Part shown: positions 5,986-53,162 of the stretch, piece by piece
Position numbering within the stretch: position 1 is the stretch's first letter
Layout: every line of letters begins with the position of its first letter
Assembly (NCBI GenBank): GCA_963700635.1
Contig: CAVOYH010000003.1
Span: forward strand, 416,001 to 480,000
Reading direction: 5' to 3'
From: an uncultured Bacteroidota bacterium
GTDB taxonomy: Bacteria; Bacteroidota; Ignavibacteria; UBA10030; UBA6906
Length of the DNA: 64,000 nt
Made by a program: the position numbers and the translations under genes
Notes under the pieces: model-generated
Told to the model about the DNA's origin: nothing
The model's database searches: none
Seen by the model: the letters and a program-made list of their open reading frames with translations, nothing else

Positions 5986-5993
5986 GTGATCTT

Positions 5994-35096: not shown

Positions 35097-35120
35097 CCAT
35101 GAAGGTGCGCACATTCGAGG

Positions 35121-35876
35121 TCAGCGTTCGGCTATGACCAGCATCTCAAAATCTTCGGTTGTAAGAACGTCTTCCCTGGAGAATGCCCCGAGCCTTGCTC
35201 CATAAATGTTTATCGTTTTGAAATCCAGGGACTTTAGCAACCAGGTTATCTCGGAGGGGACATAATATCGTTCATTACATTCCAGGGTCCGTGTTTCCCC
35301 GGCATCATCGGTGAATGTGGTCAGGTTGTGGTCACGAAAAGTCATCAGGTCAAAGGTGTTCTTGTCGTACGAAGCGTTGCCTTCTTCTGCCGGGGCAGCA
35401 AGAAAGTCCTTCACCGAGTGGAACAGAGGGAAGAGGCCGTTCAGGGTCGTCATGATCAATTTCCCGTTACGCTTCAAAGCCCGGGAAGCATTCTGAAGTA
35501 TCAAATAGTTCATTTCGTCTGTTTCCATGAGGGGGAAGGCCCCTTCACAGATCATCATCGCCAGGTCAAATTCTGCGGTAAATGGCAGCTGTCTTGCATC
35601 ATGCTTTTGAAAGTCGATCGACAGCTTTTGCCCGGCGGCTTTTTCTCTCGCCCTCAGGAGCATTGAGTCGGAGAGATCGATCCCGGTCACGGTGTAGCCC
35701 CGTTTTGCTAATTCAATCGAGTGCCGGCCCGTACCGCAACCGATGTCCAGTATCCGGGTTTGCTTATTAAATCCGATCTCCTTTTCCAGGAAATCACATT
35801 CTCCGAGAGTCCCATGGGCAAAAGACTCGTTATCATACTTTTGTCCGTAATTACTAAAGAAGAGTTCATACCACAT
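35121..35876 (-). CDS. Class I SAM-dependent methyltransferase
   Basis: ILDIGCGTGRH and GIDLS motifs. Confidence 0.9.
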   Translation of the reverse strand: MWYELFFSNYGQKYDNESFAHGTLGECDFLEKEIGFNKQTRILDIGCGTGRHSIELAKRGYTVTGIDLSDSMLLRAREKAAGQKLSIDFQKHDARQLPFTAEFDLAMMICEGAFPLMETDEMNYLILQNASRALKRNGKLIMTTLNGLFPLFHSVKDFLAAPAEEGNASYDKNTFDLMTFRDHNLTTFTDDAGETRTLECNERYYVPSEITWLLKSLDFKTINIYGARLGAFSREDVLTTEDFEMLVIAER

Positions 35877-35986
35877 TGTCAGAATTCCAGAATTGTTTTT
35901 TGTCCGGGTACTACGTCGCCGAACGACCGAGCGCTGATACGTTTATGTCCGTTGCGCCAAAGCGATGAGGATGTAATCCGGATGAC

Positions 35987-36625
35987 TTATGCGTTCCTTC
36001 CGTTCATTCGATTTCCCAACAGCAGCAGTCGCGTACTTAACGCAATGATATACAGACCCACTGCCGGCCCTGCATCGAACAGATCGCGCGTATCGGGCGG
36101 CCAGGGGAATGTCATCACATTCAGGACCATGAGCAGTATTCCAAGAAGTGCGGCAGGGACACTCCACCAGAGTCCAAAATGAGAATTTCCCTTCAGCGCG
36201 ATCGCGAGGAGCACCAGCGCAGTACCGATAAACAGGTCCCACGCGACATCAATGCCCATGTCTACCAGTCTGATCGATCGTCGTATGAGTTGCAGGAATT
36301 CCTGTTCGTTCGCCGGCGAACGCTCAATATACTCCTGAATGCCAGCCCGCACCGCGAGTTGCGATGACATCATCGCGGCAACAAGCGCAAACGCAAGACA
36401 GGCAAACACAAAGGCCAACTCGTTGGTTGCGCTCTGTTTTTCAAGTCCAATACAGCGAAAGAGTGAGTACACAAAGACGATTGACAGGATCGGCCATGCC
36501 ATGGCGAAGACATATGTGGCAATCTGAGGCAATGGCACGGTAATCGCTATGACGTAACACACTGTCCCTGCGATCCCGCATAGACCCCCGACAATGAAGA
36601 GACGCGAATACTCATGAGAGCTCAT
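35987..36625 (-). CDS. Hypothetical membrane protein
   Basis: About 6 hydrophobic segments. Confidence 0.65.
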   Translation of the reverse strand: MSSHEYSRLFIVGGLCGIAGTVCYVIAITVPLPQIATYVFAMAWPILSIVFVYSLFRCIGLEKQSATNELAFVFACLAFALVAAMMSSQLAVRAGIQEYIERSPANEQEFLQLIRRSIRLVDMGIDVAWDLFIGTALVLLAIALKGNSHFGLWWSVPAALLGILLMVLNVMTFPWPPDTRDLFDAGPAVGLYIIALSTRLLLLGNRMNGRNA

Positions 36626-37259
36626 CGTTCGTGTTCTCCGAACTGTTGGTGGTTTCAGGGAAGCCGGTGAACCGTTTCAAGACACTCAGGATGGAAACCA
36701 GCGATAGTGTTATCGCAGCACCCAGGAACGCCCATGTGGAGAAGCTTCCTAGGATTTGCTCTATGTGGAACAGGTCACCACGAGAGCCGGAAAGAAATGC
36801 AATAGACTCGCACACAAGATCAAACGCGGGCCTCAGGCACAGCAGCATGAAAACGAAACCGAGGGAAAAAGCTCTCCTGGGAAAACCCCGCCGGAGAACC
36901 AGTATGCCTGTAATAAGACACACGACATCCAGCATGTACGGAGAAGATGTCATAATGAGTTGTTGCCAGCTGTGGGTGAGGCCAACCGGAGTGATCCATG
37001 CCCTCCCGAACTCGCCGACCCAGAAACTTGGAATCAGCTTCATGTAGGTAACCTGACCACCAACCAGGTATGTTGCACCGGCGTGGCTCAACTCATGCAG
37101 GGGCGCGTAGGTAAGATACCACAGAATAGGGATGCTCAGGAGAGAGGGGATGGTAGCGCGTAGAGGCCAGTTTCCCCTCAGATACAGAAAAAGCAGAGGC
37201 GTGACGACCACCACCAGGATCTCGGACGTAATCAGCAACTGGTTATTCACGAGCCACAT
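36612..37259 (-). CDS. Membrane protein with HExxH motif (M50-like zinc peptidase)
   Basis: PLHELSHA and a downstream GD motif among transmembrane helices. Confidence 0.55.
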   Translation of the reverse strand: MWLVNNQLLITSEILVVVVTPLLFLYLRGNWPLRATIPSLLSIPILWYLTYAPLHELSHAGATYLVGGQVTYMKLIPSFWVGEFGRAWITPVGLTHSWQQLIMTSSPYMLDVVCLITGILVLRRGFPRRAFSLGFVFMLLCLRPAFDLVCESIAFLSGSRGDLFHIEQILGSFSTWAFLGAAITLSLVSILSVLKRFTGFPETTNSSENTNDELS

Positions 37260-37314
37260 TCCTTCAATCTCAATTCCGATTGATTACTCCCCGGGCCGCT
37301 ACCACCTTGCCGTC

Positions 37315-38580
37315 CTAGAAGTTGAACTGGGTCCTGATTCCAATCAGTGACAGATCCACGGGCAGACCTTGAGCATGCCGGAGGTATTGCACATGGGTCG
37401 TTACATGCACCCATTTGTTGAGGTGATACCGCATGTAGAATTCAAAGAGCAGTTCATTCATCAGCGTTGCACTCGCAGGAGATGTTTCACCGTACGCCGC
37501 GGAGAACACAAGTTTGTCTTCGGAAAGAGATGTGATAAGCCTCGCTCCCACACTCCACGCCTTGGCGATTCCGAACCAACGTGCAAGTTTGGGTTCATTG
37601 TGATTCCATCGCGCAAAGATGGATAGGCCCGCCGGCATGTTCTGATCAAAACTCAAACCGTACCCATTCCCGTTCTCCGCTGACGGATGGAGATACCCAT
37701 ATATCCTTACATTGGCCTCATAGTCGTCATCCGGAAACACTTTAAACCCAACGCTACCCATTTTTATGAGCTCATTCAGGACATTGTCACCAGAGTTATC
37801 TGCACTGGAAAGGCCGAATTGAAGGTAGATACGGGAGAGCAGAGTCGATCGGACGCGTATGCCCGGTGTACTGCCCGGGGCCGGGAGTGCAGCACTGTTA
37901 ACAAACGCAGCGCTGATGAACTGGGACGTTTCGTCGTTAGCCACGCCGTTGTTATCGAAGTAATTTGTGAGATCGATCTTCCCGGCCGTCAGCGTCAGGT
38001 CCTCCTGCAGAAGGGAGAATTCCACCCACGCTTCACCGACCGTAAGACGGTCAAACCCGTCGTTGTCCTGGGTTGACCCGCCATCGGCATTAAGGGGCGT
38101 TAATGCACCGACGTGCTGGTCAGGTCCGTTTCCTCCGATTGCCTCGAAATCGAAAAAGAGCAGGGAGTTGCCGCCGAGGCTTGTGTGGGCAAGGATATTG
38201 AGGGATCCCGTAGCCGTCGTGAACCTTCCCGCCGGACGGGGGTTCCATTGAAAGATTGACGTTGCTCCCCCGTTAAACCGTAATTGCCCCGGACGCGCTG
38301 TAATCGCCTTGAGAAGCGCGTCGACCCGCTTCCGTTTTGAGCGTTGATCTGCCGGGGCGTCCACATCCTCCCCCGATAACGAGGCGAGAAGTTCGCTGAG
38401 ATCGATTCCTTCCGCCAGGCGTTGTTTTACGGTTTGCAGTTCGCTATCAATGGTGCGAAACTGTTGCCGCAATGAGTCAAGTTGATTCTCTAACCCAACA
38501 GTGCGAAGAATCTGCAGAGTATCAACATCCTGCCCGATGGCGGAAGATGTGATCAGAGCTATCAAGATCAAGGTACGCAT
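37315..38580 (-). CDS. OprB-like outer-membrane porin with N-terminal coiled coil
   Basis: Signal peptide; EAW, GKIDL..YFD.N..ANDE..QF; terminal Phe. Confidence 0.7.
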   Translation of the reverse strand: MRTLILIALITSSAIGQDVDTLQILRTVGLENQLDSLRQQFRTIDSELQTVKQRLAEGIDLSELLASLSGEDVDAPADQRSKRKRVDALLKAITARPGQLRFNGGATSIFQWNPRPAGRFTTATGSLNILAHTSLGGNSLLFFDFEAIGGNGPDQHVGALTPLNADGGSTQDNDGFDRLTVGEAWVEFSLLQEDLTLTAGKIDLTNYFDNNGVANDETSQFISAAFVNSAALPAPGSTPGIRVRSTLLSRIYLQFGLSSADNSGDNVLNELIKMGSVGFKVFPDDDYEANVRIYGYLHPSAENGNGYGLSFDQNMPAGLSIFARWNHNEPKLARWFGIAKAWSVGARLITSLSEDKLVFSAAYGETSPASATLMNELLFEFYMRYHLNKWVHVTTHVQYLRHAQGLPVDLSLIGIRTQFNF

Positions 38581-38927
38581 AAGCATTCCCGGAAAGGCTG
38601 TATTTGACATTAATCTCTTTGAACTCACTACACCTGCCACAACACACCTCTATGCCTCTCCTCTTCAACACATGAGTGTGGACGCGGTGTTGCGTGTCAG
38701 GCGAAGCCGGTTGTTCATCGTGTGCGCGGTTTCTTCATATGCATACCCCGATCAAGACCCGGAGGCAGACCTTGAGGATATCGCGCAAACAACACAAACT
38801 CATTCCAAGGCCTGTCAGGATAATCGATGATTGGATCGTACGATCGGCTGCCTGCCGCGATCGGTCCACCAATGAGCCACATTCGTGACACCATGATCGG
38901 CTACAGCCCACCGGAGGACCCGTGCGA

Positions 38928-39503
38928 CTATTTCACCCGACGGTACGTCGTCTCGACCGCTTTTGCCTCCATCCCCTCAGGCGGGATATTATAGGCAGTG
39001 ATCGTCAGATGGTCATCATCCAGAAGTTCCACTTCCGTTCTCCAGCCCCATTTCGGTTGATGCTCACCAACGTCGTAGTCACCCCGTACGCTGAAGCCGC
39101 GTTCGGTAGCCTTGCCTTGCGAGAACATGATGGCGTAGTTCATGTGAAAGTCGTCCACCCATGAGGACTGAAACATATTAGTCACTGCGTTGAAGGCGAT
39201 CAACTCTTCGCCGTGTCGCGGTTTTCCCTGGATACTGCCTTCGTATGTGTGACGGAGAAACCGGCCTCCAAGGACTCCAGTGAACTCGCCGGTGACCTTC
39301 GACTCGTCAGCGAGCTTGCCCGGCTCGAACCAGGTTCGACAGTTCCCCTCCCATTTCCCCATCATGGACTGGAACAACGCTTTGTGCGGCATGGCTATCT
39401 CCTTGAGTGGAGTTGTTGGATCATTGTTCACTTCCTGTGCGCACGCAGAATTGCTGAATCCTATCAATGTCATTGTCAAGACCATGCGCTGGAGACTGTT
39501 CAT
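38928..39503 (-). CDS. DUF1579-family exported protein
   Basis: GGAGGAGG ribosome-binding site; GKWEG, LGGRFL and SSWVDDFH. Confidence 0.7.
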   Translation of the reverse strand: MNSLQRMVLTMTLIGFSNSACAQEVNNDPTTPLKEIAMPHKALFQSMMGKWEGNCRTWFEPGKLADESKVTGEFTGVLGGRFLRHTYEGSIQGKPRHGEELIAFNAVTNMFQSSWVDDFHMNYAIMFSQGKATERGFSVRGDYDVGEHQPKWGWRTEVELLDDDHLTITAYNIPPEGMEAKAVETTYRRVK

Positions 39504-39528
39504 GAAACCCCCTCCTCCCGGTGTATAC

Positions 39529-39939
39529 TTACATCTGTTGATGATAGAAGAACGTAAAAAGCAGAGTCTGGACAACGGCTATAAGCGCAAGCTGCCGGTA
39601 GAGACCGCCCAGTACCCGGATATCGTCAAAGGGCCATTTCTCAAGATGAGCGAAGTACGCCCGCCCGTCGATCGAAGCGAACGTCAGGATCGCGAGAACA
39701 GCCGGAAGAGGGTTGCCACTCCTGAAGCTGATATAGACAAGTCCACGGGCGGCAACATGAGGGAACAAGACCAATGCCCGCTCCAGTACCGACATCCAGG
39801 AAATACGTGTACTAAGAACTCCCCAGCCGATGATGAGCTTCCGCTCCACACCGAAGTACACAATGAGGATATAAACCTGGATTACGCCTATGGCAAGTGA
39901 TGCCAGGGTCGGGAGGAGTTTCTGAATCCTTGTATTCAT
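39529..39939 (-). CDS. Hypothetical membrane protein
   Basis: Hydrophobic ORF co-oriented with its neighbours; no recognisable motif. Confidence 0.4.
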   Translation of the reverse strand: MNTRIQKLLPTLASLAIGVIQVYILIVYFGVERKLIIGWGVLSTRISWMSVLERALVLFPHVAARGLVYISFRSGNPLPAVLAILTFASIDGRAYFAHLEKWPFDDIRVLGGLYRQLALIAVVQTLLFTFFYHQQM

Positions 39940-40006
39940 GACAGTCGCGTGCTCGTGTGCACCTTTGAGGGAAGTTTCACGAGACTATCCCGGGCGCCAT
40001 GATCAT

Positions 40007-42190
40007 TTACACCAGGGCACTCTCATTTCCTGAATCGAGGGCGAAAACGCATGACGTGCGAAGGTTTTCGGAAATGAGTCGAATTTCATCCATACTTATC
40101 TTAGACCCAAGCCCCATGACGTGCAGATCCGCCCGCGGACCTTTCTCGAACGCATCCAGTTCGCTGCTCGCAAACACCTTCAAATCGGCCGCGCGGGGAG
40201 CCCGCGACAGCTCGGACAGCAGCTCAAGCCGTTTCTGCTCTACCGGCACGACGGTCTCATTGTCGACCCGCAAAATAAGGTTCAGCTTAGCTTTCCAATT
40301 GCGCGTGAGGTGGAACGCCGTGAGCATCGCAAGATCATTGTTGCCCAGATCCATTCGTTCATCCCAGTCCGGAGGAAGATCGCGCAGCCACAGATTCACA
40401 GTCCTCTCAAGCCCGAGTCCGACTTTCTCGAATGGCACATACAGAATCAGTCCCCAATTATTAACCTTTGCACGGTCAATAATCATAGAAATATCTTCAT
40501 CTCTGATCTGGTGCTCCGCGATGCTCATGAAGACAGTGTTCGGTTTGAAAAATGCCGCTGAAAGCGCTTGCATGCTGATGCTGACGGCGTTTCCGAAGCT
40601 CTTCCCATCGATGAGTGATGAAGACGTGAAGATGCGCGCTTTGGAGAAATTTTTCACAATATCCGGAATGTACGCTTTGAGCCTCTCCGTTTCGCCCCCC
40701 GTCGTAAGGCCCAGTATTTTTATCGAGCCTTTCGGATACGTGATGGAGTAGATAAGACGGTACGCGCCCCTGATCTCCCGCGGCGCTTCGATGGGGATGA
40801 GCAGATCCGGTTGCCATGCCCGCTGTTCTTTCTGAGGAGAGAGTTCGTTGGATTTCTTGGTGGCCCACTCCGCAAGAGCGGTGAACAATCCGCTTCGCGA
40901 GTCTCCCGTTTCCGACTTCAGCTGTTTCTTGACAAGCATTCCGTAGAACGCGATGATAATTCCTGTGGAAAGCAGGGAGACAATCGGATTAATGATGAAC
41001 ATGACAAACAGCGATCCTGCGGCGCCGAGCATTGGCACGACAATCGGTACACGAAGCGTCGGACGAAAACTCGGCAAGCCGAGGCTCTGCTCAACAAGCA
41101 CAACCACATTGATCATTGCGTACGTGACCATGAAGAACATCGTTATCAACGGTGCAACCGCATTCAGGTCGCGCAACAGCAACCCGAAAAGGGCGATGCC
41201 TCCCGTAATCCACATTGCGTTCCGCGGCTCACCGCGTTTTGTGGTCTTGGTGAGGAACTCCCCCGCCGGAAGTATTTTCTTTTCACCTAACGCCAGGAGC
41301 ACGCGCGGTGCGCCGATGATCGATGACAGCGCCGAGGAGAACGTTGCCCCGAGCAATCCCGCAATCACAACGGGCTGCCATACCGAGCGGTCTATCAGCA
41401 CCGTGTAATTTTCCACAAGTTCATCCGGTGACGCAAGGAGGGCTGCCACAAACACAAGACTGACATAGACAATCGTTGTTGAAACAATCGCCGCCATGGT
41501 ACCGATCGGGATATTCTTTCTCGGGTTCGTCAGTTCCCCGGACATGTTTGCTCCCGCCATAACACCCGTCACCGCGGGGAAGAACACGGCAAAGACCCCC
41601 CAGAAGTCTGTCCCGGAGAAATTCCCTTCCGGCGTGCCACGATATGACCCGAACCACTGAAAGTCCCAGTGCAGGGGATGGACGAACAGCGCGGCATAAA
41701 TGGAGACAAGAGACCCGACGATAATCGCCATGATCACAAATTGAATCTTGAACGCAACACTGGTGCTCACATACGCAAGAACGAACACGAGTCCGAATGC
41801 CGCAAGGTCTACAAACAACGCATCGGCCTGCGGATAAATCCACTGAATCCCTTCCCGGAACCCGAAGATGTACATTGCCACCGCCAGCGCCTGCGAGAAA
41901 AAGAATGGAATGCCGATGCTTCCACCCATTTCAAGCCCGAGGGATTGTGAGATGATGGAGAATGCACCACCCGCGCCAATGCGAATGTTTGTCGTGATCG
42001 ACGACATTGCGAGGCCCGTGAAAAAAGTGATCGACGTAGCAAGTCCCACAATAAGAAGAGCCCCGCCCACCCCTGCATTTCCCACGACCCATCCCTGTCT
42101 GAGGTACATTATGACGCCAAGAATAGTAAGGAGGGACGGCGTGAAGACTCCCGCAAAAGTCCCGTAAGTTCTCTTATGAGTTGTTTTCAT
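40007..42190 (-). CDS. SLC12-like cation-chloride cotransporter / amino acid permease
   Basis: GVFTP..LTILGVIMYLR, FFPAVTG.MAGANMSG.L and APR motifs; cytosolic C-terminal domain. Confidence 0.85.
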   Translation of the reverse strand: MKTTHKRTYGTFAGVFTPSLLTILGVIMYLRQGWVVGNAGVGGALLIVGLATSITFFTGLAMSSITTNIRIGAGGAFSIISQSLGLEMGGSIGIPFFFSQALAVAMYIFGFREGIQWIYPQADALFVDLAAFGLVFVLAYVSTSVAFKIQFVIMAIIVGSLVSIYAALFVHPLHWDFQWFGSYRGTPEGNFSGTDFWGVFAVFFPAVTGVMAGANMSGELTNPRKNIPIGTMAAIVSTTIVYVSLVFVAALLASPDELVENYTVLIDRSVWQPVVIAGLLGATFSSALSSIIGAPRVLLALGEKKILPAGEFLTKTTKRGEPRNAMWITGGIALFGLLLRDLNAVAPLITMFFMVTYAMINVVVLVEQSLGLPSFRPTLRVPIVVPMLGAAGSLFVMFIINPIVSLLSTGIIIAFYGMLVKKQLKSETGDSRSGLFTALAEWATKKSNELSPQKEQRAWQPDLLIPIEAPREIRGAYRLIYSITYPKGSIKILGLTTGGETERLKAYIPDIVKNFSKARIFTSSSLIDGKSFGNAVSISMQALSAAFFKPNTVFMSIAEHQIRDEDISMIIDRAKVNNWGLILYVPFEKVGLGLERTVNLWLRDLPPDWDERMDLGNNDLAMLTAFHLTRNWKAKLNLILRVDNETVVPVEQKRLELLSELSRAPRAADLKVFASSELDAFEKGPRADLHVMGLGSKISMDEIRLISENLRTSCVFALDSGNESALV

Positions 42191-42307
42191 GTTTATCTGG
42201 TTGTACTGGGGGCTGGTTATCAATGTTCACAAAGGCACCTCGGGGGATTGCATGATGGGTACTGAAACACAGCCGGAGACCATTGCGTATCTGGAAGCTT
42301 ATTCACT

Positions 42308-42468
42308 GTGCGATTCACGCATGAACACCACACAAGCTACCGCATCGGCATCATGCTCGGTTTTGCCACACACCTCATATGTATCGTTCTGGTCATTCGT
42401 CTCTACAAGCTGCTCAACAATGTGGACAAAAGCCAGGCAATGCTTATGGTGCTCTTGGTGTCCGTCGG
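42308..42468 (+). pseudogene. DUF4386-like membrane protein fragment
   Basis: YRIGI...LYKLLNNVDKSQAMLMVLLVSV; truncated at both ends. Confidence 0.5.
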
Positions 42469-42484
42469 GGGTGGCCCGACCCGC

Positions 42485-45070: not shown

Positions 45071-45183
45071 CTGGTTTCCCCGAAGCAGAAATATCGTTGG
45101 CAGTTTTGTGGAATACTCTCACTCCCACGTGAGTAAAACCGCACAGATGTATGGATAGATGCACCTCCAGCCCTTCTTGGATG

Positions 45184-45909
45184 TCAGCGATCACTCTTTG
45201 CTGCAACAGGAGCGTGTGCAAGCGCCGAAGGCGACTGACAGCTGACAATTGCCGGGGCCTCGTGTATCAACTCGTCATTCTCTAAGGCGGCTACCATGAA
45301 GTGCGCAAAGTCTACGCGGCGCGTGATATTACTCTTGAGAATTGAGTCGCCCACGTGCCGACTCCAAACGGGCAAACCCTGACTCTCCCCCTCTTCGAGG
45401 TCACTTCCGCGCACGACCGTCCACCGCGTATCGCTGGCAAATACCCGCCGGCACGCTTCGACCTGATCGTCCAAGTCCGCAAGGCGAATGAGCCGGGCAA
45501 ACCAGCCGAAGACACTCGCGAACAATTTGAACGACCTCGTGTATACATCCTGCCCGTCTCGCGTAATGTGCCAGCCACACGAAAACACAAGACGCGCACC
45601 CGGCGGCGCGTAGTCGAGCACGGCCTGCGCGGTCCCGGTCGAGTACTGTTGGACTCCCCACGGGACCAGGACAGTGAGTACCCCGTCGCACCCTACAATC
45701 GCTTTCTTGATAACCTCGCGGTCATCCGTTGCGCCCGGAAAGATGCGTATGCGCCCTTTGAATGCATCGAGTTTCCCGACGCTACGCTCCCGGCAAACCC
45801 CGACCACCTCATAGCCCCGATCCAGCGCGTGCTGCACCATGTATTTCCCGAGCTTGCCGGAGGCCCCGACGATACAGACCCTCCTAGGTTCCGTTCCTGA
45901 GTGTTTCAT
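45184..45909 (-). CDS. NAD(P)H-binding (NmrA/flavin reductase-like) protein
   Basis: VGASGKLG, WTVVRG and RVDFA motifs. Confidence 0.8.
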   Translation of the reverse strand: MKHSGTEPRRVCIVGASGKLGKYMVQHALDRGYEVVGVCRERSVGKLDAFKGRIRIFPGATDDREVIKKAIVGCDGVLTVLVPWGVQQYSTGTAQAVLDYAPPGARLVFSCGWHITRDGQDVYTRSFKLFASVFGWFARLIRLADLDDQVEACRRVFASDTRWTVVRGSDLEEGESQGLPVWSRHVGDSILKSNITRRVDFAHFMVAALENDELIHEAPAIVSCQSPSALAHAPVAAKSDR

Positions 45910-45964
45910 AGATTGTATTACTTTCATAAATGTGAATGGTCATTGCTACTTACGTATCGCCACA

Positions 45965-46075
45965 CAACACCAGCGTCTGCCAAACTACTCGAATGGTTCA
46001 GGAGCATCCTCAGCGTGATGCGACCAGAATGGCGATACCTCGGGAACCACTGGCCAATGGCGCTGTCGAGGGCAA
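45965..46075 (-). pseudogene. Serine hydrolase (beta-lactamase family) internal fragment
   Basis: LALDSAIGQWFP...ITLRMLLNHSSSLAD. Confidence 0.55.
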
Positions 46076-46166
46076 GCTCACTTTGCCCTGGCCGCACCGG
46101 ACCTTGAAGCACGCTCCAATGCAACACCTCTACTAAGAGGGATCGTCGTGGTTACGCCTGGTATGC
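46074..46166 (-). repeat. attC-like site, homologous to 52234-52325
   Basis: Colinear similarity with the 52.2 kb site; minus-strand GCATACC after the stop is complementary (6/7) to the cassette-start GTTATGC at 46665. Confidence 0.6.
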
Positions 46167-46181
46167 GTTCGTTGGTGTGCG

Positions 46182-46598
46182 CTAGTTCTCCCGTTGAGCG
46201 GTGATCTTACCTGCGATATATCCCATCGGTAGATAGGCTCCTGCCAAATCAACGATAGTAAACCATGCTGGGGAAGGCAGCATGATCACGTTGATGATCC
46301 CACCGAGGAGAAACCAGGCACCAACGCCAAGCGCAAACAACATCTTCCGTGTCGTGGCCAGGACGCTCGCAACGAGGGCTCCGACGAACGTTCCGATGGC
46401 GTGAGCGAGAAACGGCATCACGAAATTCTTCGGCTCGAACAGGTGCATCGACGATTTTAGGCCTTCCATCGTGGTCACGTCCGCTCCTGTGGGAGGAGGG
46501 ATAATGGAGGGACCGAGCATAACGATGCCCATGTTGACGAGTCCGCCGACCACGACGCCGGCAATGACAGCGAGGATGTTCTTGAGAATTGGGTTCAT
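46182..46598 (-). CDS. Hypothetical membrane protein (cassette-like)
   Basis: GGAG ribosome-binding site; PFLAHAIGT and DLAGAYLPM; flanked by attC-like sites. Confidence 0.8.
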   Translation of the reverse strand: MNPILKNILAVIAGVVVGGLVNMGIVMLGPSIIPPPTGADVTTMEGLKSSMHLFEPKNFVMPFLAHAIGTFVGALVASVLATTRKMLFALGVGAWFLLGGIINVIMLPSPAWFTIVDLAGAYLPMGYIAGKITAQREN

Positions 46599-46658
46599 GA
46601 GGCTATTCTCTCCTGATCTGTTAATGTGCTTTGGACTGATTAGGCTCACGCCAATAAG

Positions 46659-46795
46659 GCATAACGTCTCGCCCAACAACGAAGGCCCGCCCACCGCGCT
46701 CTTCTCTCAAGAAGTGGCGGGCTTGCGCGACCACGAATTGACCTTCACAGCTCCTAGTCACAGCCATTTCAACTGAGCGAGCATCGTTGTTACGC
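46659..46795 (-). repeat. attC-like site
   Basis: GCATAAC-gt-CTCGCCCA ... TGAGCGAG-catc-GTTGTTAC, with internal CCCGCCCAC/GTGGCGGG stem. Confidence 0.6.
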
Positions 46796-46842
46796 GTGCT
46801 ATGTGCAGTGCGCCGCCATTTACGTGGAGGCCCCTTACGTTC

Positions 46843-48012
46843 TCATACAAGCCATCCATATGCATGTGCGATGACTTCAAATACTTCCCAAATGAGTTCC
46901 TCGCCCGATTCTCCGTTTGTCATGATGACGATGCCGTCAGGGACATCAACTGAAAGGACCATGAAACAGCGATACCCACCATTCCCTCCGCCGTGCTGAA
47001 ATCGAAAGACGCCCGAACTCGGCAACGACAGTCCGAGTCCAAAATCGTCAATCTGTCTGGTCAACATCTCACGAGCGAGATTCTGGCTCAGGAGCTTGTT
47101 TAATCTTCCATGATATGATTGCCAGAGCCCAATCATAAATGAGGCTAAGTCTTTGGGAGTTGTCCAGAGTCCTCCTGCCGCTTGTTCAGGGAGCGTGTGC
47201 CAGGATCCCTTGAGGGGAGTTCCATTAGCAAGGTGGCCAACAGCGGCATGTGACCGCCGTGCGACTGGCAGCGGCTGCTCAAACGTGCTGGAGGACATTC
47301 CTGCAGGTCGCAACACAAACTCATTGGCAAGTGACTCAAATGTACGATGCGACACGTCGGTCATGAGAACCTGCAAGACGACGTAGCCACCGCCAGAATA
47401 CTGGAATTTCGCCCCCGGCTGATACACAGGTCGAACCGAGTCTGCAGTCGCTGACCATTTCCCATCGAGAATCTCAACGAGCGTTGGGAGTTCGTCATTA
47501 GCCGAGAATTCCGGAACACCGTGCATTGACAGTCCAGCAGAGTGACTTAGCAGCCTGCGTAGTGTGACAGGCTGCTTTCTCGTAAACTCGTTCCTCTTCA
47601 CTTTCCATGACAACAACTTGAGGTTTACGTCTTCGTCTAACGAGAGCATTCCCATTTCCACCATACGCAGCGCAACAACAGCAGACACAGGCTTGGAAAT
47701 GGATGCTGCTTGAAACAACGTGCTTGTGTCTACGCGTTCAGGTTTCCCGTGTTCAAGAATCCCATACCCTCTCGCCCAGTCTATTCGTCCGTTATGAACA
47801 ACTGCAATGCTCAGTCCGGGTACGTGATGCTGCTCCAGCTCAATTGTTAGAGCATCCTCAGGAATCGGTGTGCCAGCGACCACCCGGCTTTTCAAGGCAT
47901 CCTGGTGTCGTGAGCAACCAGGCCCAAATGAAAGGAGCGCCGTGAAGAAGCAAACCCGGAGGATGCGGGTTAGTGTCGTTGTATGTGATTGAGTTCCTCC
48001 TGACCGATTCAT
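46843..48012 (-). CDS. Serine hydrolase, class C beta-lactamase-like, probable lipoprotein
   Basis: SISK (SxxK), LLSHSAG, YSGGG and HGG motifs. Confidence 0.88.
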   Translation of the reverse strand: MNRSGGTQSHTTTLTRILRVCFFTALLSFGPGCSRHQDALKSRVVAGTPIPEDALTIELEQHHVPGLSIAVVHNGRIDWARGYGILEHGKPERVDTSTLFQAASISKPVSAVVALRMVEMGMLSLDEDVNLKLLSWKVKRNEFTRKQPVTLRRLLSHSAGLSMHGVPEFSANDELPTLVEILDGKWSATADSVRPVYQPGAKFQYSGGGYVVLQVLMTDVSHRTFESLANEFVLRPAGMSSSTFEQPLPVARRSHAAVGHLANGTPLKGSWHTLPEQAAGGLWTTPKDLASFMIGLWQSYHGRLNKLLSQNLAREMLTRQIDDFGLGLSLPSSGVFRFQHGGGNGGYRCFMVLSVDVPDGIVIMTNGESGEELIWEVFEVIAHAYGWLV

Positions 48013-48148
48013 ATTGGTCTCGACGTGTTTTCGGTTGACGGCGCTCTGCAAAAAGCGTCTCGCCGCACCACGCAGCGGCGAGCACTGCGCTGTTTTATCA
48101 AATGCGCGAAGCGTTGTCTAGTGGTCATACTCCAACATCCGGAGTGTA

Positions 48149-49132
48149 TCATACGTGATCTTCCACAATTATCACTACTTTTCCTCGAGCATGTCCTTCT
48201 CCCAGATACCGAAGTGCTTCAGCAGCCTCACGTAACGGATACCGTCTATCAATAACCGGAACGACTTTGCCCGCCTCCAGAAGTTCTTTGAGAATGAGCA
48301 AATCTTTTTGTTCTATTTTCGCCGATACGCCACCCATTGTCTTGCCCCCGGTTTTTGACATCCATGATCCGAGGAGCATAGCCTGAAAGATTTGAGCCTT
48401 AGTTCCTCCCGCCATGACATAGGTGCCCTTGGGCGTCAGGGCACGCCTGTACGCTGAAAGCGGATGATATCCATTTGCGGCAAGAATGATGTCATACTGT
48501 TGACCACTTTGGGTGAAATCTTCATTTGTATAATCGATAACATGGTCTGCTCCCAGCGAGCGCGCCTGCTCCACATTCCTGGTACTGCACACGGCGGTGA
48601 CCTCAGCCCCGAGCGATTTGGCAATCTGCACCGCAAACGTTCCCACCCCACCCGATGCTCCATTGATCAAGACTTTTTGTCCCGCCTGAATATGCCCTTC
48701 ATCGCGGAGGCCCTGCAGCGCGGTGAGGGCGGCCATGGGCACAGCCGCCGCTTGCTCAAACGACAGATTGACCGGTTTCAGCGCCAATGCTCTTTCAGGA
48801 ACAGAGACGTACTCGGCAAAAGCACCTCTCCCAAATGACGCGGCATCCCCGAAGACCTCATCACCCGGCTGGAACTGCTTCACGTTTCTGCCCACAGCTT
48901 CGACTTGCCCCGATAGGTCAGCGCCTAGTCGCGTGTTTTTAGGTTTGAGCAGTCCCCCGCCCATCAGGCGAATCAGGAATATGTCTGCAGTAAGGAAATG
49001 CCAGTCATACGCATTGACGGACGCCGCATGAACCTTGATCAAAACTTGATCGTCCTTGGCCGCAGGTTTGTCGACGTCTTTGAGTTGAAGAACATCCGGT
49101 GATCCATACGTTGTGTACACAATTGCCTTCAT
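48149..49132 (-). CDS. NAD(P)-dependent medium-chain dehydrogenase (quinone oxidoreductase-like)
   Basis: YGSPDVL, GAFAEY, NGASGGVG and GHARGKVV motifs. Confidence 0.9.
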   Translation of the reverse strand: MKAIVYTTYGSPDVLQLKDVDKPAAKDDQVLIKVHAASVNAYDWHFLTADIFLIRLMGGGLLKPKNTRLGADLSGQVEAVGRNVKQFQPGDEVFGDAASFGRGAFAEYVSVPERALALKPVNLSFEQAAAVPMAALTALQGLRDEGHIQAGQKVLINGASGGVGTFAVQIAKSLGAEVTAVCSTRNVEQARSLGADHVIDYTNEDFTQSGQQYDIILAANGYHPLSAYRRALTPKGTYVMAGGTKAQIFQAMLLGSWMSKTGGKTMGGVSAKIEQKDLLILKELLEAGKVVPVIDRRYPLREAAEALRYLGEGHARGKVVIIVEDHV

Positions 49133-49153
49133 AAATCTTCCCTCAAGATTACT

Positions 49154-49735
49154 TTAGTGCTGCATATCTATCCAGAAGCTGAAGGAACTGTTGCCCACCC
49201 AGCGCCAGTCCTTTGTGAAGAACCGGCCGCTGAAGTAGCGCCTCCGCAGGTGAACGGTATCGTGCTGAAGCGTCGCGTGCCAGGATTGCGTGACACCCAT
49301 ACGATCGACCACAAAGGAATCGCGCGCCGTGACAGGGGGCGAAATATCATAAGGTGCGACCGAGAAGCGAGTGCTATCGTACGCTTCCGTCACGGTGAAG
49401 AAGTTGCTTGTTGCAAGCCCGCCATCGCCGAGGGCCACACGGATGGGGCCGTTGGAGGCACCAAAGGGCGCATAGCTGTAGAGCACCGAGGCCGAGCCAC
49501 TGTCTGCAGTCAGTGCATCGCCGCCTGTGAAGCGTACGGCATTGTACCGTGGGGGAAGAACGAACTGAGTTCCGCTGAGAGTCACCATGGTCCCGATTTG
49601 ACCTGAGCTCGGAGAAGCATAGATGAAGAGTGCTGGATCCTTACCCTGGGTCGGTGCGAATTGGCTGCCAAGATCGGAACAATTTATCTGGCAGAACATC
49701 AGTGCAAGCACACTGACCCGAGGCAAAGACGACAT
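49154..49735 (-). CDS. IPT/TIG-like domain protein, possibly truncated
   Basis: Signal peptide with Cys; SPSSG.IGT.VTLSG.F and P.GA.NGPI.V. Confidence 0.5.
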   Translation of the reverse strand: MSSLPRVSVLALMFCQINCSDLGSQFAPTQGKDPALFIYASPSSGQIGTMVTLSGTQFVLPPRYNAVRFTGGDALTADSGSASVLYSYAPFGASNGPIRVALGDGGLATSNFFTVTEAYDSTRFSVAPYDISPPVTARDSFVVDRMGVTQSWHATLQHDTVHLRRRYFSGRFFTKDWRWVGNSSFSFWIDMQH

Positions 49736-49833
49736 CGTATTCACCGTAAGAGTCCTCCAGTACCGCTTTGCGGAGCGAATGGCTATGGCGCATATCGTCA
49801 CACGTGCCAACGCCGGCCCGCGCCGCATACTGC

Positions 49834-49974
49834 AATGAACGCGTTCGATATCGACAACGGACGCGAACTACTCGGCCATGGGGCGCGGGCTCGAGTGAGC
49901 ACTATGTACATCGCCCCGCCGAAGGGCGTTTCTCAAGGCGCAGGAAACATCTAGTTGCGATCGCGTGTTACGGC
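49834..49974 (-). repeat. attC-like site
   Basis: TGAACGCGTTCG..CAAC ... GTTGCGATCGCGTGTTACGGC, 20 bp past the DUF1428 stop. Confidence 0.55.
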
Positions 49975-49993
49975 ACAGTATGTCCGTGATATA

Positions 49994-50350
49994 TCATCCT
50001 CCGACGACGACTTTGAATCCGCCGTACGCCATGCGCTTTAAGTCGAACGGCATTTCGGTTGGCTGGTCGCACATAGTGGCGACTTCTTTCATCACTTTCG
50101 CGTTTACGCGGTCGCGGTGTGATCGCGATTTGAAAACGATATAGGAGAACCCTACAGTCTCGCCACGTTTGAGCCTGGTCATCCGCGGAAAGAGTGCACC
50201 CCACTTCGGCTTGAGGTCATCGCCAATACACTCTTTGTAATCCAGGGCGCCGTGCTTTTTCCAGAGTTTGTGCCCGGCCCGAGCCATTCGAAGATAGGCC
50301 TTGATGTTCTTTTTGGGTATGGTGAAAACATATCCGTCCACGTATTTCAT
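49994..50350 (-). CDS. DUF1428-family protein
   Basis: YVDG, HGALDY.EC.GDD and MPFD.KRM.YGGF; AGGAGG ribosome-binding site. Confidence 0.92.
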   Translation of the reverse strand: MKYVDGYVFTIPKKNIKAYLRMARAGHKLWKKHGALDYKECIGDDLKPKWGALFPRMTRLKRGETVGFSYIVFKSRSHRDRVNAKVMKEVATMCDQPTEMPFDLKRMAYGGFKVVVGG

Positions 50351-50429
50351 CTGGTCCCTCCTTGAGTAATTGTGACCTGACAGGAACTTTCAACTTCGGC
50401 TTTGTCGAGTATCATAAGCAAGTTCTGGC

Positions 50430-50700
50430 TGAACTACGTGCCGCAAAGCGCGCTGCCAACTGAGACGCAGAATGCATGGATGGGACCTTCTCGCTGCGCC
50501 ATCCGTGGGATAAGATCCGGTGTCACTTTCCCCTCGTGGCTTGGAACAACGGTCACGTCGGCTCCGAATGCCCGCATAGTATCCAGCTTCTCTTTCTTGG
50601 TTCGTGTTTATCCGGTGAAATATGATCCATGTGCTCCGCCGGACATGACCCACAACGTATCGCCGCTCCACGCAGCCCCCACCACACCAACACTCTACCA
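50430..50700 (-). pseudogene. PLP-dependent cysteine synthase-family fragment
   Basis: KEKLDTMRAFGADVTVVPSHEGKVTPDLIPRM in a minus frame with no intact start; boundaries approximate. Confidence 0.55.
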
Positions 50701-50821
50701 ATTGAGCGGCGCGCTTGAGCGTATTCACTGCATTATGCCGACATTGGTCTCATCTTTGCCTTTGCAGATGAGTGCGCGACGTGGTGCGTCGTATTGTGCG
50801 AAGACGTTACGGTGCGCATCG

Positions 50822-51799
50822 TCAGTGCGGACGCCACACTGGGGTTTCATTTCGTTTTGGTTCACTTGTCAGACGAATCTTCTTTCGTGTTTCCACATGT
50901 ATTATCCACACATCATATTGGGCAGAGGTGCCGCTGGAGTAGGCAATCCATTTCCCGTCAGGTGACCACGAAGGTGAGTAGTCTTCTAAGATGTCTTGCG
51001 TCACATTGATCATGCCGCTGCCATCACTGTTCATAATAAAAATCTCGAAGTTCTTATCTTCAGCAGGTCCGTAGAATGCTATCCTTTTTCCATCAGGGGA
51101 ACATTTTGCCCCGGAGTCAAATCCCTTTTTTACTGTCAAACGCTTTTCGTTTTTCCCGTCTGCATCCATCATAAATATCTCACCATTTGCAGCATGAGAT
51201 GTATCGTCCGGTTCCTTTATCTGTCTTGTAAAGAGAATTGTATTTCCATCTGCTGACCACGTTGGTACTTCTTCAAATGCTTCATTTGATGTGAGCCGTG
51301 CAATATTGGAACCGTCGGCGTTCATTGTATATATCTCTCTGCTTTTGTGGTCTCTGTCTGATGTGAAAACAATGTGTTTCCCGTCGGGAGACCAGGTGGG
51401 CAGATAGTCGTTAGAAGGATGATTCGAAAGATTCCGCTGATTGTTTCCATCGGCGTCCATAACATAGATCTCGTTATTGCCATCACGATTCGAGTAAAAC
51501 AGTATATGGTTACCGTCTGGTGACCACGATGACCAGAAGTCCAGAGCCTTGTTGTTAGTCAAATTCTTTTCGTTCTGACCGGTTGCGTCCATTGAGTAGA
51601 CTTCAAAATTGCCGTCCCTCGTGGTCAGGAACGACAACACGCCATGAGGCACTTCCGTTGCCTTATCGTTGCCCTGACTGGTAGAGAGCGTCTTACACCC
51701 CGACCCACAGACTAAGAGTATCCCGAAGAATGATAAAATGAAGGGAGCCCTGTTATTCACCTGTCTGTTTGAGCTGTAAGGGACATCGAGAGTTTCCAC
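50822..51799 (-). CDS. TolB-like PD40-repeat beta-propeller lipoprotein
   Basis: Lipobox GSGC; repeated WSPDG..I.F.S.RDGN.EIY.M units; visibly AT-richer than its flanks. Confidence 0.9.
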   Translation of the reverse strand: METLDVPYSSNRQVNNRAPFILSFFGILLVCGSGCKTLSTSQGNDKATEVPHGVLSFLTTRDGNFEVYSMDATGQNEKNLTNNKALDFWSSWSPDGNHILFYSNRDGNNEIYVMDADGNNQRNLSNHPSNDYLPTWSPDGKHIVFTSDRDHKSREIYTMNADGSNIARLTSNEAFEEVPTWSADGNTILFTRQIKEPDDTSHAANGEIFMMDADGKNEKRLTVKKGFDSGAKCSPDGKRIAFYGPAEDKNFEIFIMNSDGSGMINVTQDILEDYSPSWSPDGKWIAYSSGTSAQYDVWIIHVETRKKIRLTSEPKRNETPVWRPH

Positions 51800-51954
51800 T
51801 GAGTAGTCCTTCTATCGTTAGGTCGGTTCGATTGATTGTCGCGCGCAGAGTTCCGCATGACGGCTGGCCGCACCACGCAGCAGTTCCTGGTGATCCAAGA
51901 TTCGACCTCGCCTAGCCTGCAACTCGCCGCGGGGTTTCCTTCTGTTTGGCGACT

Positions 51955-52156
51955 GGAATATATCCCATTGGGGACAATAGAACAACCAGCACCCCGTGGA
52001 TCCCGTGTGCCCGAGAATCGCGGGCATAGGAGCGGCCAGTGATAAGACCCGGGGTAGACGGAAACGCATGATCCCGATTCCATATTCGACCGGCCAACCC
52101 GGCGAGCGCAATGCTGCGCGGTCCAGCGGGAATCCGAAACGATGCCAGTTGTCTTG
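51955..52156 (-). pseudogene. Serine hydrolase C-terminal fragment
   Basis: WHRFGFPLDRAALRSPGWPVEYGIGIMRF...GHTGSTGCWLFYCP. Confidence 0.65.
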
Positions 52157-52199
52157 TAAAGTGCCGCAAAACGACTTATGAAAATGTATCTTTGCTTAC

Positions 52200-52327
52200 G
52201 CATAACGTTCAGGCGCGCGCAACGGGGTAAGTGAGCTCAACTTTCCCTGGTCGCACCAGACCTTGAAGACCTCCCCAATTCAAGACCTCCATAAAGCGAG
52301 AGTGTCGTGGTGCAGGTTGTCAGGCGC
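52200..52327 (-). repeat. attC-like site of the first cassette
   Basis: Minus strand GCGCCTGAC ... GTTATGC; GCGCCTGAC is complementary (8/9) to GTTAGGCGC at 52809. Confidence 0.65.
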
Positions 52328-52336
52328 AGGCACCTC

Positions 52337-52756
52337 TCAAGTTCTCAGAGACTTCAATGTATCGACGACTATGCTGACGGCCTTCATGTCGCTTGCCTTC
52401 TTGACATCTAAGTGCAGAGGCCAGCCTTCGGGGTACCTTTTGGCTACCGCCAATTCCCCCTTTAGCTTTGCCGGCAGTTTCGAATTCAGCAAGGCTTCCT
52501 TCTCGATGTCTCGCACCGCAAACCCCAGCCTGAATGCTCCTTCCTGCGGAATGAGATAGAGCAGCGCCTTCCCCTTGTGTGTAGCTTTGAGTTGCCAACC
52601 GTACTTGGCCCCATAGAACTTCCACTCGCGGGGATAGGCTTCTATAGACGCGAGAATGTCCTTATATACAGGGTAGACTGCTCGGAGGGCCTTCTTCAGT
52701 TTCGGGTCATCAGGAACGAGCTCCTTGCTGCTAAAGTAGATTTGAATGGCTGTCAT
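52337..52756 (-). CDS. DUF3788-like protein (first cassette)
   Basis: EWKFYGAKYGW, K.K.L.YLIP and YPEG motifs; GGAGG upstream. Confidence 0.7.
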   Translation of the reverse strand: MTAIQIYFSSKELVPDDPKLKKALRAVYPVYKDILASIEAYPREWKFYGAKYGWQLKATHKGKALLYLIPQEGAFRLGFAVRDIEKEALLNSKLPAKLKGELAVAKRYPEGWPLHLDVKKASDMKAVSIVVDTLKSLRT

Positions 52757-52800
52757 GTCCGTCGAAACCTCCGGTTGTGGGACCTCTGGTGAGATAGCTT

Positions 52801-52836
52801 GCGCCTAACTACTGCCTCTACGAATTTCGTTTAGGT
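52801..52836 (-). other. attI-like recombination site
   Basis: Perfect GTTRRRY core (GTTAGGC, 52809-52803) preceded by the imperfect inverted repeat CCT..ACGAA/TTCGT..AGG, directly downstream of the recombinase remnant. Confidence 0.55.
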
Positions 52837-52899
52837 GAGCCCGGGGGTGCGGTTGGCGAAGTATTGCGTGTGGGCCGCTCATGGCTTTGTACCACCCGG

Positions 52900-53162
52900 T
52901 CCAACGGACTCCTTATCCGCCCCCGCCTCAAGCAAATGCGTCGCAAAGAAATGCCGCAGCGTGTGCACCGTCTCCGGCTTCCGAATCCCACCCCGCCCCA
53001 ATGCCCGCAATATCTTGCCGAATAGCGAGAAAGTCAATGACCGGTCGCTCCCAGAGAATACCATGGAAAACTCCATCGACATAATACCGCAGAAGATCAC
53101 AAACAGTATCCCGACCCCGATAGACCCCGCCACATTACATTTCCGATGACCCTGACTTTCCG
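52900..53162 (-). pseudogene. Tyrosine recombinase/integrase remnant
   Basis: [25 protein letters not shown] (box II); RKVRVIGN in another frame; LGH and catalytic Tyr region missing. Confidence 0.8.

Follow-up and report, generated by a model that had tools for sequence, protein, structure and literature searches.

The minus strand of the window (the whole 64,000-nucleotide stretch of DNA that was analysed) carries at about 46.0-52.9 kb what we read, with a probability of roughly 0.8, as the fossil of a chromosomal cassette platform, integron-like but of an atypical class. There a one-strand cluster of attC sites is headed by a GTTAGGC site that resembles attI and by what is left of a tyrosine recombinase gene; the recombinase tied to the array is without the extra domain regarded as the mark of integron integrases, and its gene has the same orientation as the cassettes. 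The array is dead, i.e. frozen and eroding, because its genome (G000) contains neither an intact copy of this short recombinase nor a true integron integrase (IntI). An earlier note on this DNA had proposed such a decaying cassette-capture platform of atypical architecture; the proposal holds, but the span assigned to it, 35.1-53.2 kb, shrinks to roughly 46.0-52.9 kb plus one weak outlier site at 38.6 kb. The window is an example of platform death, with the integrase truncated, the cores mutated, the sites halved and the cassette genes still intact.

Recombinase remnant and attI-like site

The recombinase gene remnant (52840-53136, minus strand) corresponds to approximately residues 174-320 of a protein of about 300-340 aa. 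Its N-terminal ~170 codons are gone, a stop codon interrupts the frame at 52879-52881, and LLGH survives only as a degenerate motif. The remnant matches Pfam PF00589 (Phage_integrase) with E=7e-6 and scores better against TIGR02249 (E=5.5e-9) than against XerD (1.2e-7); the closest database protein is P0001 (65% identity over 37 aa), and tblastn with the short recombinases of relatives traces it over 53136-52840, so that the remnant described in the earlier note is real. The sequence IRSPLD can be read in a shifted frame, which would point to an internal deletion, but a same-frame alignment through the stop codon fits equally well. The part of the gene encoding the IntI-specific domain region is missing from the remnant itself, and the claim that the recombinase does not look like IntI is borne out by its intact orthologues, which are not IntI by the NCBIfam cut-off: they score 221-250 bits against TIGR02249, over positions 1-178 only, where the cut-off is 265 and a true IntI used as control reaches 436 bits over positions 1-313. 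In G000 no TIGR02249 match above the cut-off was found, and the best matches are Xer-like.

The attI-like site (52800-52848, minus strand) is a decayed inverted repeat followed by GTTAGGC (52809-52803), 61 nt past the former recombinase stop codon. Six intact loci in relatives carry a conserved post-stop motif with which it can be aligned, and the intact G020 and G017 loci align with the remnant from its 3' end through the post-stop DNA to GTTAGGC. About 20 minus-strand ORFs follow the remnant, as had been noted; co-orientation is not special to this region, however, because the run of minus-strand genes spans 23872-56145.

attC sites in the window

Two covariance models were used. R1 was built from canonical attC sites flanking true IntI genes in the same-genus relatives G001, G003 and G017, and R2 describes a second attC family (13 sites from seven other genomes, no window sequence); R2 E-values are rough, its calibration having been shortened. 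The covariance-model search called for in the earlier note gave nothing with R1, whose best window match (E=0.19) lies outside the region with none at the junctions; half-site HMMs of the R1 family (132 and 112 sites) likewise found no match in the region at E<=50. R2 gave five top matches in the window, all on the minus strand and all in post-gene spacers, two of them at E<1e-16 and three weak (E=7e-4 to 0.07), the next match having E=0.29. Throughout the 4.2-Mb genome, R2 reached E<=1 at four places only, all in this region, and for each half of the site four of the five best genome-wide half-site HMM matches also fall here. The sites did escape the first attC model, R1, as the earlier note had expected of standard tools, but the degeneracy that it blamed is secondary; the main reason is that they belong to another attC family.

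The two full-length sites lie at 46655-46812 (73.1 bits, E=1.9e-19, the genome's best match) and 50646-50807 (65.1 bits, E=3.9e-17). The decayed site at 52196-52333, in which the core TAAC has become TGAC, scores 15.4 bits (E=0.009) and ranks third in the genome with the 5'-half HMM (E=0.23). At 48046-48096 a truncated site keeps its arms, with the interior deleted and GTT changed to GCT (19.2 bits, E=7e-4); it is the genome's best match to the 3'-half HMM (E=8.9e-5) and shares 83% identity over 54 nt with a site in G031. Two further sites are half-sites: a 3' half, comprising GTCATGC and the L' arm, that immediately precedes the PD40 gene described below, at 51853-51886 (3'-half HMM E=0.15, genome rank three), and a relic of a 5' half with the R'' box GCATACC, at 46080-46167 (5'-half HMM E=4.2, genome rank five; half-site at 46135-46167), which forms the end of the cassette before it. 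A candidate for a decayed attC, at 38623-38710 in the spacer that separates a DUF1579 gene from an OprB-like one, is the fifth-ranking R2 match of the window (12.2 bits, E=0.073). All seven are on the minus strand. Conserved cores are mutated in every window site. No gap between the successive sites at 52196, 50646, 48046 and 46655 reaches 4 kb.

A 21-nt repeat confined to the region, of which the half-site at 51853-51886 is a member, is one arm of this second attC family. A longer repeat, in which 52234-52311 is 77% identical to 46075-46152 over 78 nt, runs through the 46080-46167 relic; it was considered as a pseudogene relic, a reading that was rejected because it forms the 5' part of attC sites of the R2 family. 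At 258.7 kb on contig C4 of G000, what had looked like a vestige of the repeat was dismissed as noise. On the same contig, at C4:600781-604051, G000 carries another attC cluster, of R1 type. At gathering thresholds, Rfam gave no match in the window. By folding, the best window sites are only slightly better than shuffled sequences (z=-1.2 to -1.6), and the MFE z-scores of 15 window spacers range from -2.2 to +1.3; the power is low, since four of eight true attC controls also lie above -2 on both strands.

Cassette genes and extent of the array

Four cassettes encode, respectively, a DUF3788 protein (first cassette, 52337-52756; PF12663, E=1.6e-20), a lipoprotein-like PD40 beta-propeller (50822-51799; PF07676, E=1e-43), a beta-lactamase-family serine hydrolase (46843-48051; PF00144, E=3.5e-49), and a small membrane protein that belongs to no known family (46182-46694), all on the minus strand. 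The last probably starts at an internal Met near 46595, as an attC site runs across the listed start. A minus-strand pseudogene fragment at 45933-46076 also belongs to PF00144 (E=3.7e-4), its best database matches being two PF00144 proteins with 74% and 53% identity.

Four further ORFs may be cassettes. Cassette status is uncertain for a DUF1428 ORF (49994-50350, minus strand; PF07237, E=1e-30), the flanks of which gave no attC model match, and for two ORFs separated by 21 nt (48149-49828, minus strand), one of 224 aa and one resembling zinc-type alcohol dehydrogenases. The earlier note had asked whether homologues of these genes are attC-flanked elsewhere: those of the PD40, 224-aa and dehydrogenase ORFs do occur in cassette arrays of relatives, but among 29 loci encoding DUF3788 homologues an R1 site was found at none and an R2 site at one. 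A DUF3788 homologue in G027 (56%) lies 56 nt past an R2-type attC. Orthologues of the dehydrogenase ORF at 80% also lie outside arrays, in G001 and G002. In the window, the dehydrogenase and NAD-binding genes bracket two cassettes; in G002 they adjoin each other with no attC sites there, so that either native genes lie between parts of the platform or it has been rearranged.

Below this region no attC signal was found with the models at 35.1-38.6 kb or 38.7-46.0 kb, and the cation-chloride transporter and NAD-binding protein genes in the lower part of the claimed span have a non-integron context in the closest relative; an ordinary variable island remains the better reading for 35.1-46.0 kb. 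Between G000 and G001 gene order is scrambled, over a wider span of about 18-56 kb. At six of 19 junctions less than 50 nt is left.

R2 arrays in related genomes

In relatives, arrays of R2 sites lie immediately downstream of a gene for a tyrosine recombinase of about 300 aa and in the same orientation as that gene. The intact order is recombinase gene, an attI-like hairpin ending in GTTA (24-108 nt past the recombinase stop codon), and same-strand cassettes each ending in an attC of about 140 nt with the layout R''-L''-variable-L'-R'. This linkage was seen at all six loci examined by sequence; three more from match tables behave likewise, giving nine of the 13 short-recombinase loci listed, and of the other four, two are at contig ends and two (both in G035) are without R2 sites. 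In an Ignavibacteriota MAG, nine R2 sites begin 300 nt past the recombinase gene. The R and L arms of relatives' R2 sites pair in 89.6% of cells, compared with 24-46% for slid partners, and are so conserved that covariation is nearly absent; one R2 site of an intact relative reaches a folding score of z=-7.4, in a structure closed by its R and L arms.

The short recombinases retain the catalytic residues R, K, H, R, H and Y. In alignment they are without two stretches present in IntI, about 29 and 10 aa long, and the NCBIfam XerA model matches them over their full length with 220.8-231.7 bits (cut-off 220). The two site families are separate: R2 found no match at 16 loci around true or partial IntI, and R1 found none at 15 short-recombinase or R2 loci. 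R2 sites are present in 23 of 41 genomes of this order, and in 13 of 30 relatives for which no short recombinase was listed at E<=1e-30. Among 80 wider recombinase relatives from all phyla, R2 matches were found at three loci only, which says little about the other loci because R2 is clade-specific.

Cassette rule

Integron cassettes begin with a sequence complementary to their own end. In the arrays of relatives, R' of one site and R'' of the next agree at 5.28 of six variable positions on average (n=32), against 3.41 for the two boxes of the same site (n=39) and 3.01 for all other pairs (n=1450); the consecutive-site mean was reached in none of 5000 resamples. The attI-like site and R'' of the first attC in the six intact loci agree at 6, 5, 6, 6, 6 and 5 of six positions. 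Four window cassettes, read by hand since the script mislocated mutated cores, gave 6/6, 5/6, 5/6 and 5/6, the 6/6 being the attI-like motif against the R'' box at 52327-52318. This start-to-own-end complementarity is the footprint of circular intermediates cut at G/TT.

The earlier note had seen the same rule in several genes, with four complementary pairs as examples, and its eight strings were all found where it placed them, on the minus strand. Two of the pairs fall exactly on covariance-model boxes, 52809/52327 being the attI-like site and the R'' box of attC 52196-52333, and 46665/46166 the R' box of attC 46655-46812 and the R'' box of half-site 46135-46167; the other two are without a model match. 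The pair 50381/49977 is ambiguous, 49977 being R''-like by eye, and 35924/35132 is unsupported, 35132 lying inside the methyltransferase ORF. Taken as bare k-mers, the complementary pairs exceed chance by a small margin only: three of 21 region genes have GTT-anchored 9-mers with eight or more matches, compared with 0.82 expected from 3,278 ORFs of the genome.

Proposed mechanism and meaning

By analogy with integrons, the short recombinase would cut at G/TT, integrating circular cassettes at attI and removing them again by recombination between attC sites; it may be the enzyme that performs the reaction. On balance we lean towards the view that the XerA-like recombinases of about 300 aa are true cassette integrases, acting on folded attC and attI without the I2 or additional domain, and that with their own attC family they form a second, co-oriented integron class, parallel to canonical IntI integrons in the same genomes, widespread in this order and reaching other phyla. 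Software and literature alike recognise integron integrases by an extra domain, which passages of two papers (PMC9668308, PMC9024848) describe as defining and as necessary for the recombination of folded attC DNA. Here a related family without that domain heads arrays with the full integron recombination footprint, in genomes that contain canonical integrons of another attC family as well. A search that relies on the IntI-specific domain would probably fail to call the second class a complete integron. Should the short enzyme prove to carry out the reaction, cassette capture would not require the I2 domain, integron surveys would be missing members across whole clades, and a Xer-like origin of integrons would become testable through a natural intermediate or parallel form.

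Alternative explanations

The alternative that survives best, although we consider it improbable, is an ordinary cluster of attC sites lacking an integrase (CALIN), in which canonical IntI made and moved the sites in trans and the neighbouring remnant is incidental. True IntI genes occur in nine of 41 relatives and in seven of the 23 R2-positive genomes, G000 has the R1-type CALIN on C4, and IntI accepts diverse attC sites according to a passage of Cury et al. 2016 (PMC4889954); but the other 16 of 23 R2-positive genomes are without an above-cut-off IntI, R2 sites were found at none of the 16 IntI loci examined, and the attI-like site directly past the short-recombinase stop codon matches the first cassette in six of six loci. 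It is very unlikely that the R2 elements are self-spreading REP- or MITE-like intergenic palindromes, or terminators, with no role in cassette recombination. They are palindromic and located after genes, and in G032 there are 23 of them scattered over at least eight contigs with no short recombinase listed, but the start of each unit complements its own end (5.28 against 3.41 and 3.01 of six) and co-orientation inside arrays is strict. We give hardly any credence to an ordinary variable island with complementary motifs arising by chance at 46.0-52.9 kb, a verdict to which the R1 null, the marginal k-mer excess, the scrambled G000/G001 gene order and the six short junctions lend some colour but which is contradicted by the R2 matches (E=2e-19 and 4e-17) and by the alignment of the remnant and attI-like site to intact loci.

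Comparison with known systems

The fossil platform resembles published sedentary chromosomal integrons and CALIN in that its cassettes share one orientation and each ends in an imperfect palindrome that has L arms and AAC...GTT cores; it further resembles sedentary integrons in having attI beside the recombinase gene and a cassette start that complements its own end. A passage of Cury et al. 2016 (PMC4889954) defines CALIN as two or more attC sites on one strand, spaced less than 4 kb apart and with no integron integrase close by; this also describes the window, where no working integrase is near. Among canonical-integron features, attC, G/TT boundaries and an adjacent attI are present; the IntI domain and a working integrase are absent. 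In contrast to sedentary integrons, the recombinase family here is without the IntI-specific additional domain, its gene is transcribed towards the cassettes, and its attC family is distinct from that beside true IntI in the same clade.

The 'reverse' integron enzymes of Treponema are, we take it, classed as IntI and carry the additional domain. One such gene, at 716056-717288 in a passage of Wu et al. 2013 (PMC3607928), has about 410 codons, far more than the ~300 aa of the short recombinases would need. XerA, XerC and XerD are similar to the short recombinases in length and domain make-up (PF13495 plus PF00589). Unlike them, the short recombinases head attC arrays and are not in a dif-like chromosome-resolution context, share the C-terminal SPLD/SPID motif with IntI, and have TIGR02249 among their top two matches. 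Xer/dif or pdif modules are flanked by 28-nt dif-like sites with two 11-nt arms around a 6-nt spacer, whereas the sites here are attC-type palindromes of about 140 nt.

Canonical integrons and the content of the region

On the minus strand between 35121 and 52756 lie 20 ORFs of at least 100 aa. The Pfam search assigned no family to 9 of these 20; the families found are a methyltransferase, an OprB-like porin, DUF1579, a cation-chloride transporter, an alpha/beta hydrolase, an NAD-binding protein, a PF00144 hydrolase, a zinc-type dehydrogenase, DUF1428, a PD40 propeller, and DUF3788. The earlier note had described 35.1-53.2 kb as a decaying integron-like cassette array headed by a co-oriented recombinase, and all eight core strings it quoted were found at its positions. 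Gene co-orientation is not special to this region, because the minus-strand run covers 23872-56145.

True IntI genes (above the cut-off of the NCBIfam integron integrase model TIGR02249) were found in 9 of the 41 relatives. Two same-genus genomes carry a true gene and a third has a broken copy; the genome search of G000, to which the window belongs, returned no gene above the cut-off. Textbook attC sites adjoin the relatives' true IntI genes in divergent orientation, and 12 such canonical sites were aligned to build the covariance model R1 (90% of cells paired, with covariation exceeding every shuffle). R1 matches occur in 23 of 61 family genomes, and G000 has four sites, at C4:600781-604051 and C2:35148. 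The C4 group is a second, unrelated canonical attC cluster, in which small ORFs separate three sites and the R' boxes are degenerate. The site at C2:35148-35272 stands alone, apart from a possible 5' half at C2:36432. No IntI was found near the sites on either contig. The 639-aa gene adjoining true intI in G001, G003, and G005 has its orthologue at G000:C3:1094305-1096209, far from the window, and no intI or attC was found beside it, so the canonical platform of the genus appears to have been lost in G000. In relative G040, a 21-nt tandem-like repeat occurs about 10 times immediately upstream of a true intI at a contig end (locus L025, G040:C5:855000-862558, positions 5517-6078).

When R1 was run on the window with filters off, the best match had E=0.19 at 20432 and none fell at the claimed junctions; half-site HMMs of the R1 family found nothing in the region. 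The complementary k-mers that had been read as cassette boundaries were present in excess at gene ends, if only marginally (3 of 21 region genes vs 0.82 expected). In a comparison with the closest relative, G001, the flanks are conserved (about 7.7-18.3 kb and 55.8-63.7 kb) and the middle is scrambled. The R1, half-site, and k-mer results led to an interim reading of the locus as an ordinary variable island. One sign ran counter to it: a comparison with 211 kb of relatives' cassette arrays gave homologues for only 4 of the 63 window ORFs, and all four are inside the region (genome-wide rate 158 of 3299 ORFs; 52 of 2357 when ORFs longer than 450 aa are left out). For 46.0-52.9 kb the island reading was overturned by matches to a second model, R2.

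A second attC family and its sites in the window

A 21-nt repeat is present in the window in four copies on one strand (46665, 48056, 50656, and 51861), and a profile search found no other copy in the 4.2-Mb genome. Used as a DNA query, it gave intergenic matches in 9 of 40 relatives, several each in G040, and in every printed case from a relative GTTA follows directly. Read with longer context, these sites are palindromes of about 140 nt. They open with an R'' box whose last bases are TAAC, followed by an L'' arm of 11 nt; next come a variable interior, which contains a further hairpin, and the L' arm, which is the repeat itself, and the R' box stands last, with GTTA as its first bases. They form a second attC family. 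The covariance model R2 was trained on 13 such sites from seven genomes, none of them from the window; 89.6% of the cells in its alignment arms pair, vs 24-46% with the partners slid.

In an R2 search of the window with filters off, the five best matches are all on the minus strand and all in spacers just past genes: 46655-46812 (73.1 bits, E=1.9e-19), 50646-50807 (65.1 bits, E=3.9e-17), 48046-48096 (E=7e-4), 52196-52333 (E=0.009), and a candidate at 38623-38710 (E=0.073). The sixth match has E=0.29 and the rest are scattered over both strands; in the whole genome R2 reaches E<=1 at four places only, all in this region. Half-site HMMs added two minus-strand half-sites, a 5' one at 46135-46167 and a 3' one at 51853-51886. 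In the genome-wide ranking for each half, four of the top five matches fall in the region. A 78-nt repeat (46075-46152 and 52234-52311) is the 5' part of two R2-type sites, and a PF00144 pseudogene fragment is confined to 45933-46076.

Every conserved core in the window sites is altered (TAAC to TGAC, TAGC, TACC, or CAAT; GTT to GCT or GTC), one site has no interior, and two are half-sites. The best window sites fold only slightly better than shuffles (z=-1.2 to -1.6), and an intact G040 site reaches z=-7.4. The window platform is dead. At the two ends of the PF00144 cassette (48046-48096 and 46803-46812), GCT takes the place of the initial GTT and AGC that of the closing AAC; these two altered cores are mutually complementary, suggesting that a non-canonical core was inherited and not that decay struck twice. 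Minus-strand ORFs of 112 aa and 148 aa (50434-50607; 51818-52195) resemble noise over decayed DNA; one alternative frame there is weakly PALP-like (Pfam E=0.054), and the other has a GHTGSTG-like stretch and no Pfam match.

An array is well supported over about 46.0-52.9 kb; at 38.6 kb there is weak support for a single site, and the rest of 35.1-46.0 kb has none. The transporter and NAD-binding gene of this lower stretch are syntenic with G001, where they lie outside any array. In relative G002 the dehydrogenase and NAD-binding genes lie close together and have no attC sites, and in the window they enclose two cassettes; the platform is therefore either interleaved with native genes or rearranged. 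The DUF1428 gene, a 224-aa ORF, and the zinc-type dehydrogenase may be cassettes.

Recombination footprint and putative attI

In seven arrays of relatives, the six variable bases past GTTA were compared with those before TAAC of the next site. Consecutive sites match at a mean of 5.28 of 6 (n=32; 16 perfect), vs 3.41 for a site's own two boxes (n=39) and 3.01 for all other pairs (n=1450); none of 5000 resamplings was as high as the observed mean. The start of each unit is therefore complementary to its own end, as would be expected for a circular form cut between the G and TT of the core. Each recombinase stop codon is followed, 24 to 108 nt on, by a conserved motif made up of an inverted repeat and then GTTA. 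Compared with the first attC at six relatives' loci, the variable bases of the motif agree at 6, 5, 6, 6, 6, and 5 of 6 positions; it behaves as an attI.

The window boxes were read by hand from the covariance-model alignments and printed sequence, as mutated cores defeated the scripted box finder. Two of the complementary pairs originally proposed fit the footprint: 52809/52327 is the putative attI against the R'' box at 52327 (6/6), and the second pair is a membrane-protein cassette with R' at 46665 and R'' at 46166 (5/6). The hand-read values are also 5/6 for the PD40 cassette (R' 51860, R'' ~50802) and the PF00144 cassette (R' 48056, R'' ~46807).

Linkage of R2 sites to a short recombinase

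Six loci of a tyrosine recombinase of about 300 aa (the short recombinase) were picked before the R2 family was known, and each of them proved to have co-oriented R2 sites downstream, four of these detections being independent of the R2 training set. Table coordinates added G033:C6, G025:C9, and G031:C44, so that 9 of the 13 listed loci have R2 sites; of the remaining four, two lie where a contig ends and the other two, both from G035, lack R2 sites. A scan with one genome per species found more than 590 relatives of the short recombinase in many phyla, the closest being in an Ignavibacteriota MAG with nine R2 sites from 300 nt past the gene. The two attC families are mutually exclusive: R2 found nothing at 16 loci around true or partial IntI, and R1 had no match at 15 loci of the short recombinase or of R2 sites.

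R2 sites occur in 23 of the 41 relatives, and 16 of these 23 have no above-cut-off IntI. A genome-scale R2 search of five same-genus genomes found none; the fetched G001:C4 locus (same genus; L064, G001:C4:52000-71999) has a lone site at 10487-10675 (E=1e-5). Genes of mobile elements surround that site: a Mutator-family transposase, an HTH_17 protein, DUF932, and a Mu Gam-like protein. In locus L059 (G040:C2:493000-507000, positions 7104-9125), a second, shorter recombinase copy (264 aa) and an IS91-family transposase (Y2_Tnp plus Zn_Tnp_IS91) lie between the 293-aa recombinase and its attC array.

The recombinase remnant and comparison with known integrases

The window remnant is an 84-aa minus-strand ORF (52879-53133; Pfam Phage_integrase, E=7e-6) directly following the ABC permease gene; about 170 N-terminal codons are gone, a stop codon lies at 52879-52881, and the LLGH motif is lost. 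Its closest relatives are recombinases of about 300 aa with a TIGR02249 match below cut-off (database protein P0001, 65%; a G040 protein, 64.5%), vs 46-59% identity to true IntI over shorter stretches (22-37 aa). Its final codons and the DNA past the former stop, as far as GTTAGGC (52809), can be aligned with the loci of G020 and G017. The ABC transporter pair at 53189-55734 abuts the truncated gene; it was not found in five same-genus genomes and is present in 8 other genera of the family, and in G020 its homologue has an R2 site 3.3 kb upstream.

Six intact orthologues share 51-84% identity among themselves, across families, and retain the catalytic residues R, K, H, R, H, and Y. Intact orthologues are not IntI by the TIGR02249 cut-off and have R2 sites downstream on the same strand, in agreement with the co-oriented, non-IntI-looking recombinase of the earlier note. 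A full-text literature search found no account of attC arrays that have at their head a recombinase lacking the IntI domain, and one may already be in print. The domain that the short recombinases do not have is called defining and necessary in integron papers (PMC9668308, PMC9024848), and co-orientation of integrase and cassettes is already known from Treponema (PMC3607928). A C-terminal SPLD/SPID motif is common to short recombinases and IntI. Unlike same-genus IntI, the short recombinases are without two segments of about 29 and 10 aa, and they score 221-250 bits against TIGR02249 (cut-off 265) over positions 1-178 only, whereas an IntI control scores 436 bits over positions 1-313; the cut-off of the NCBIfam XerA model is reached by the short recombinases over full length.
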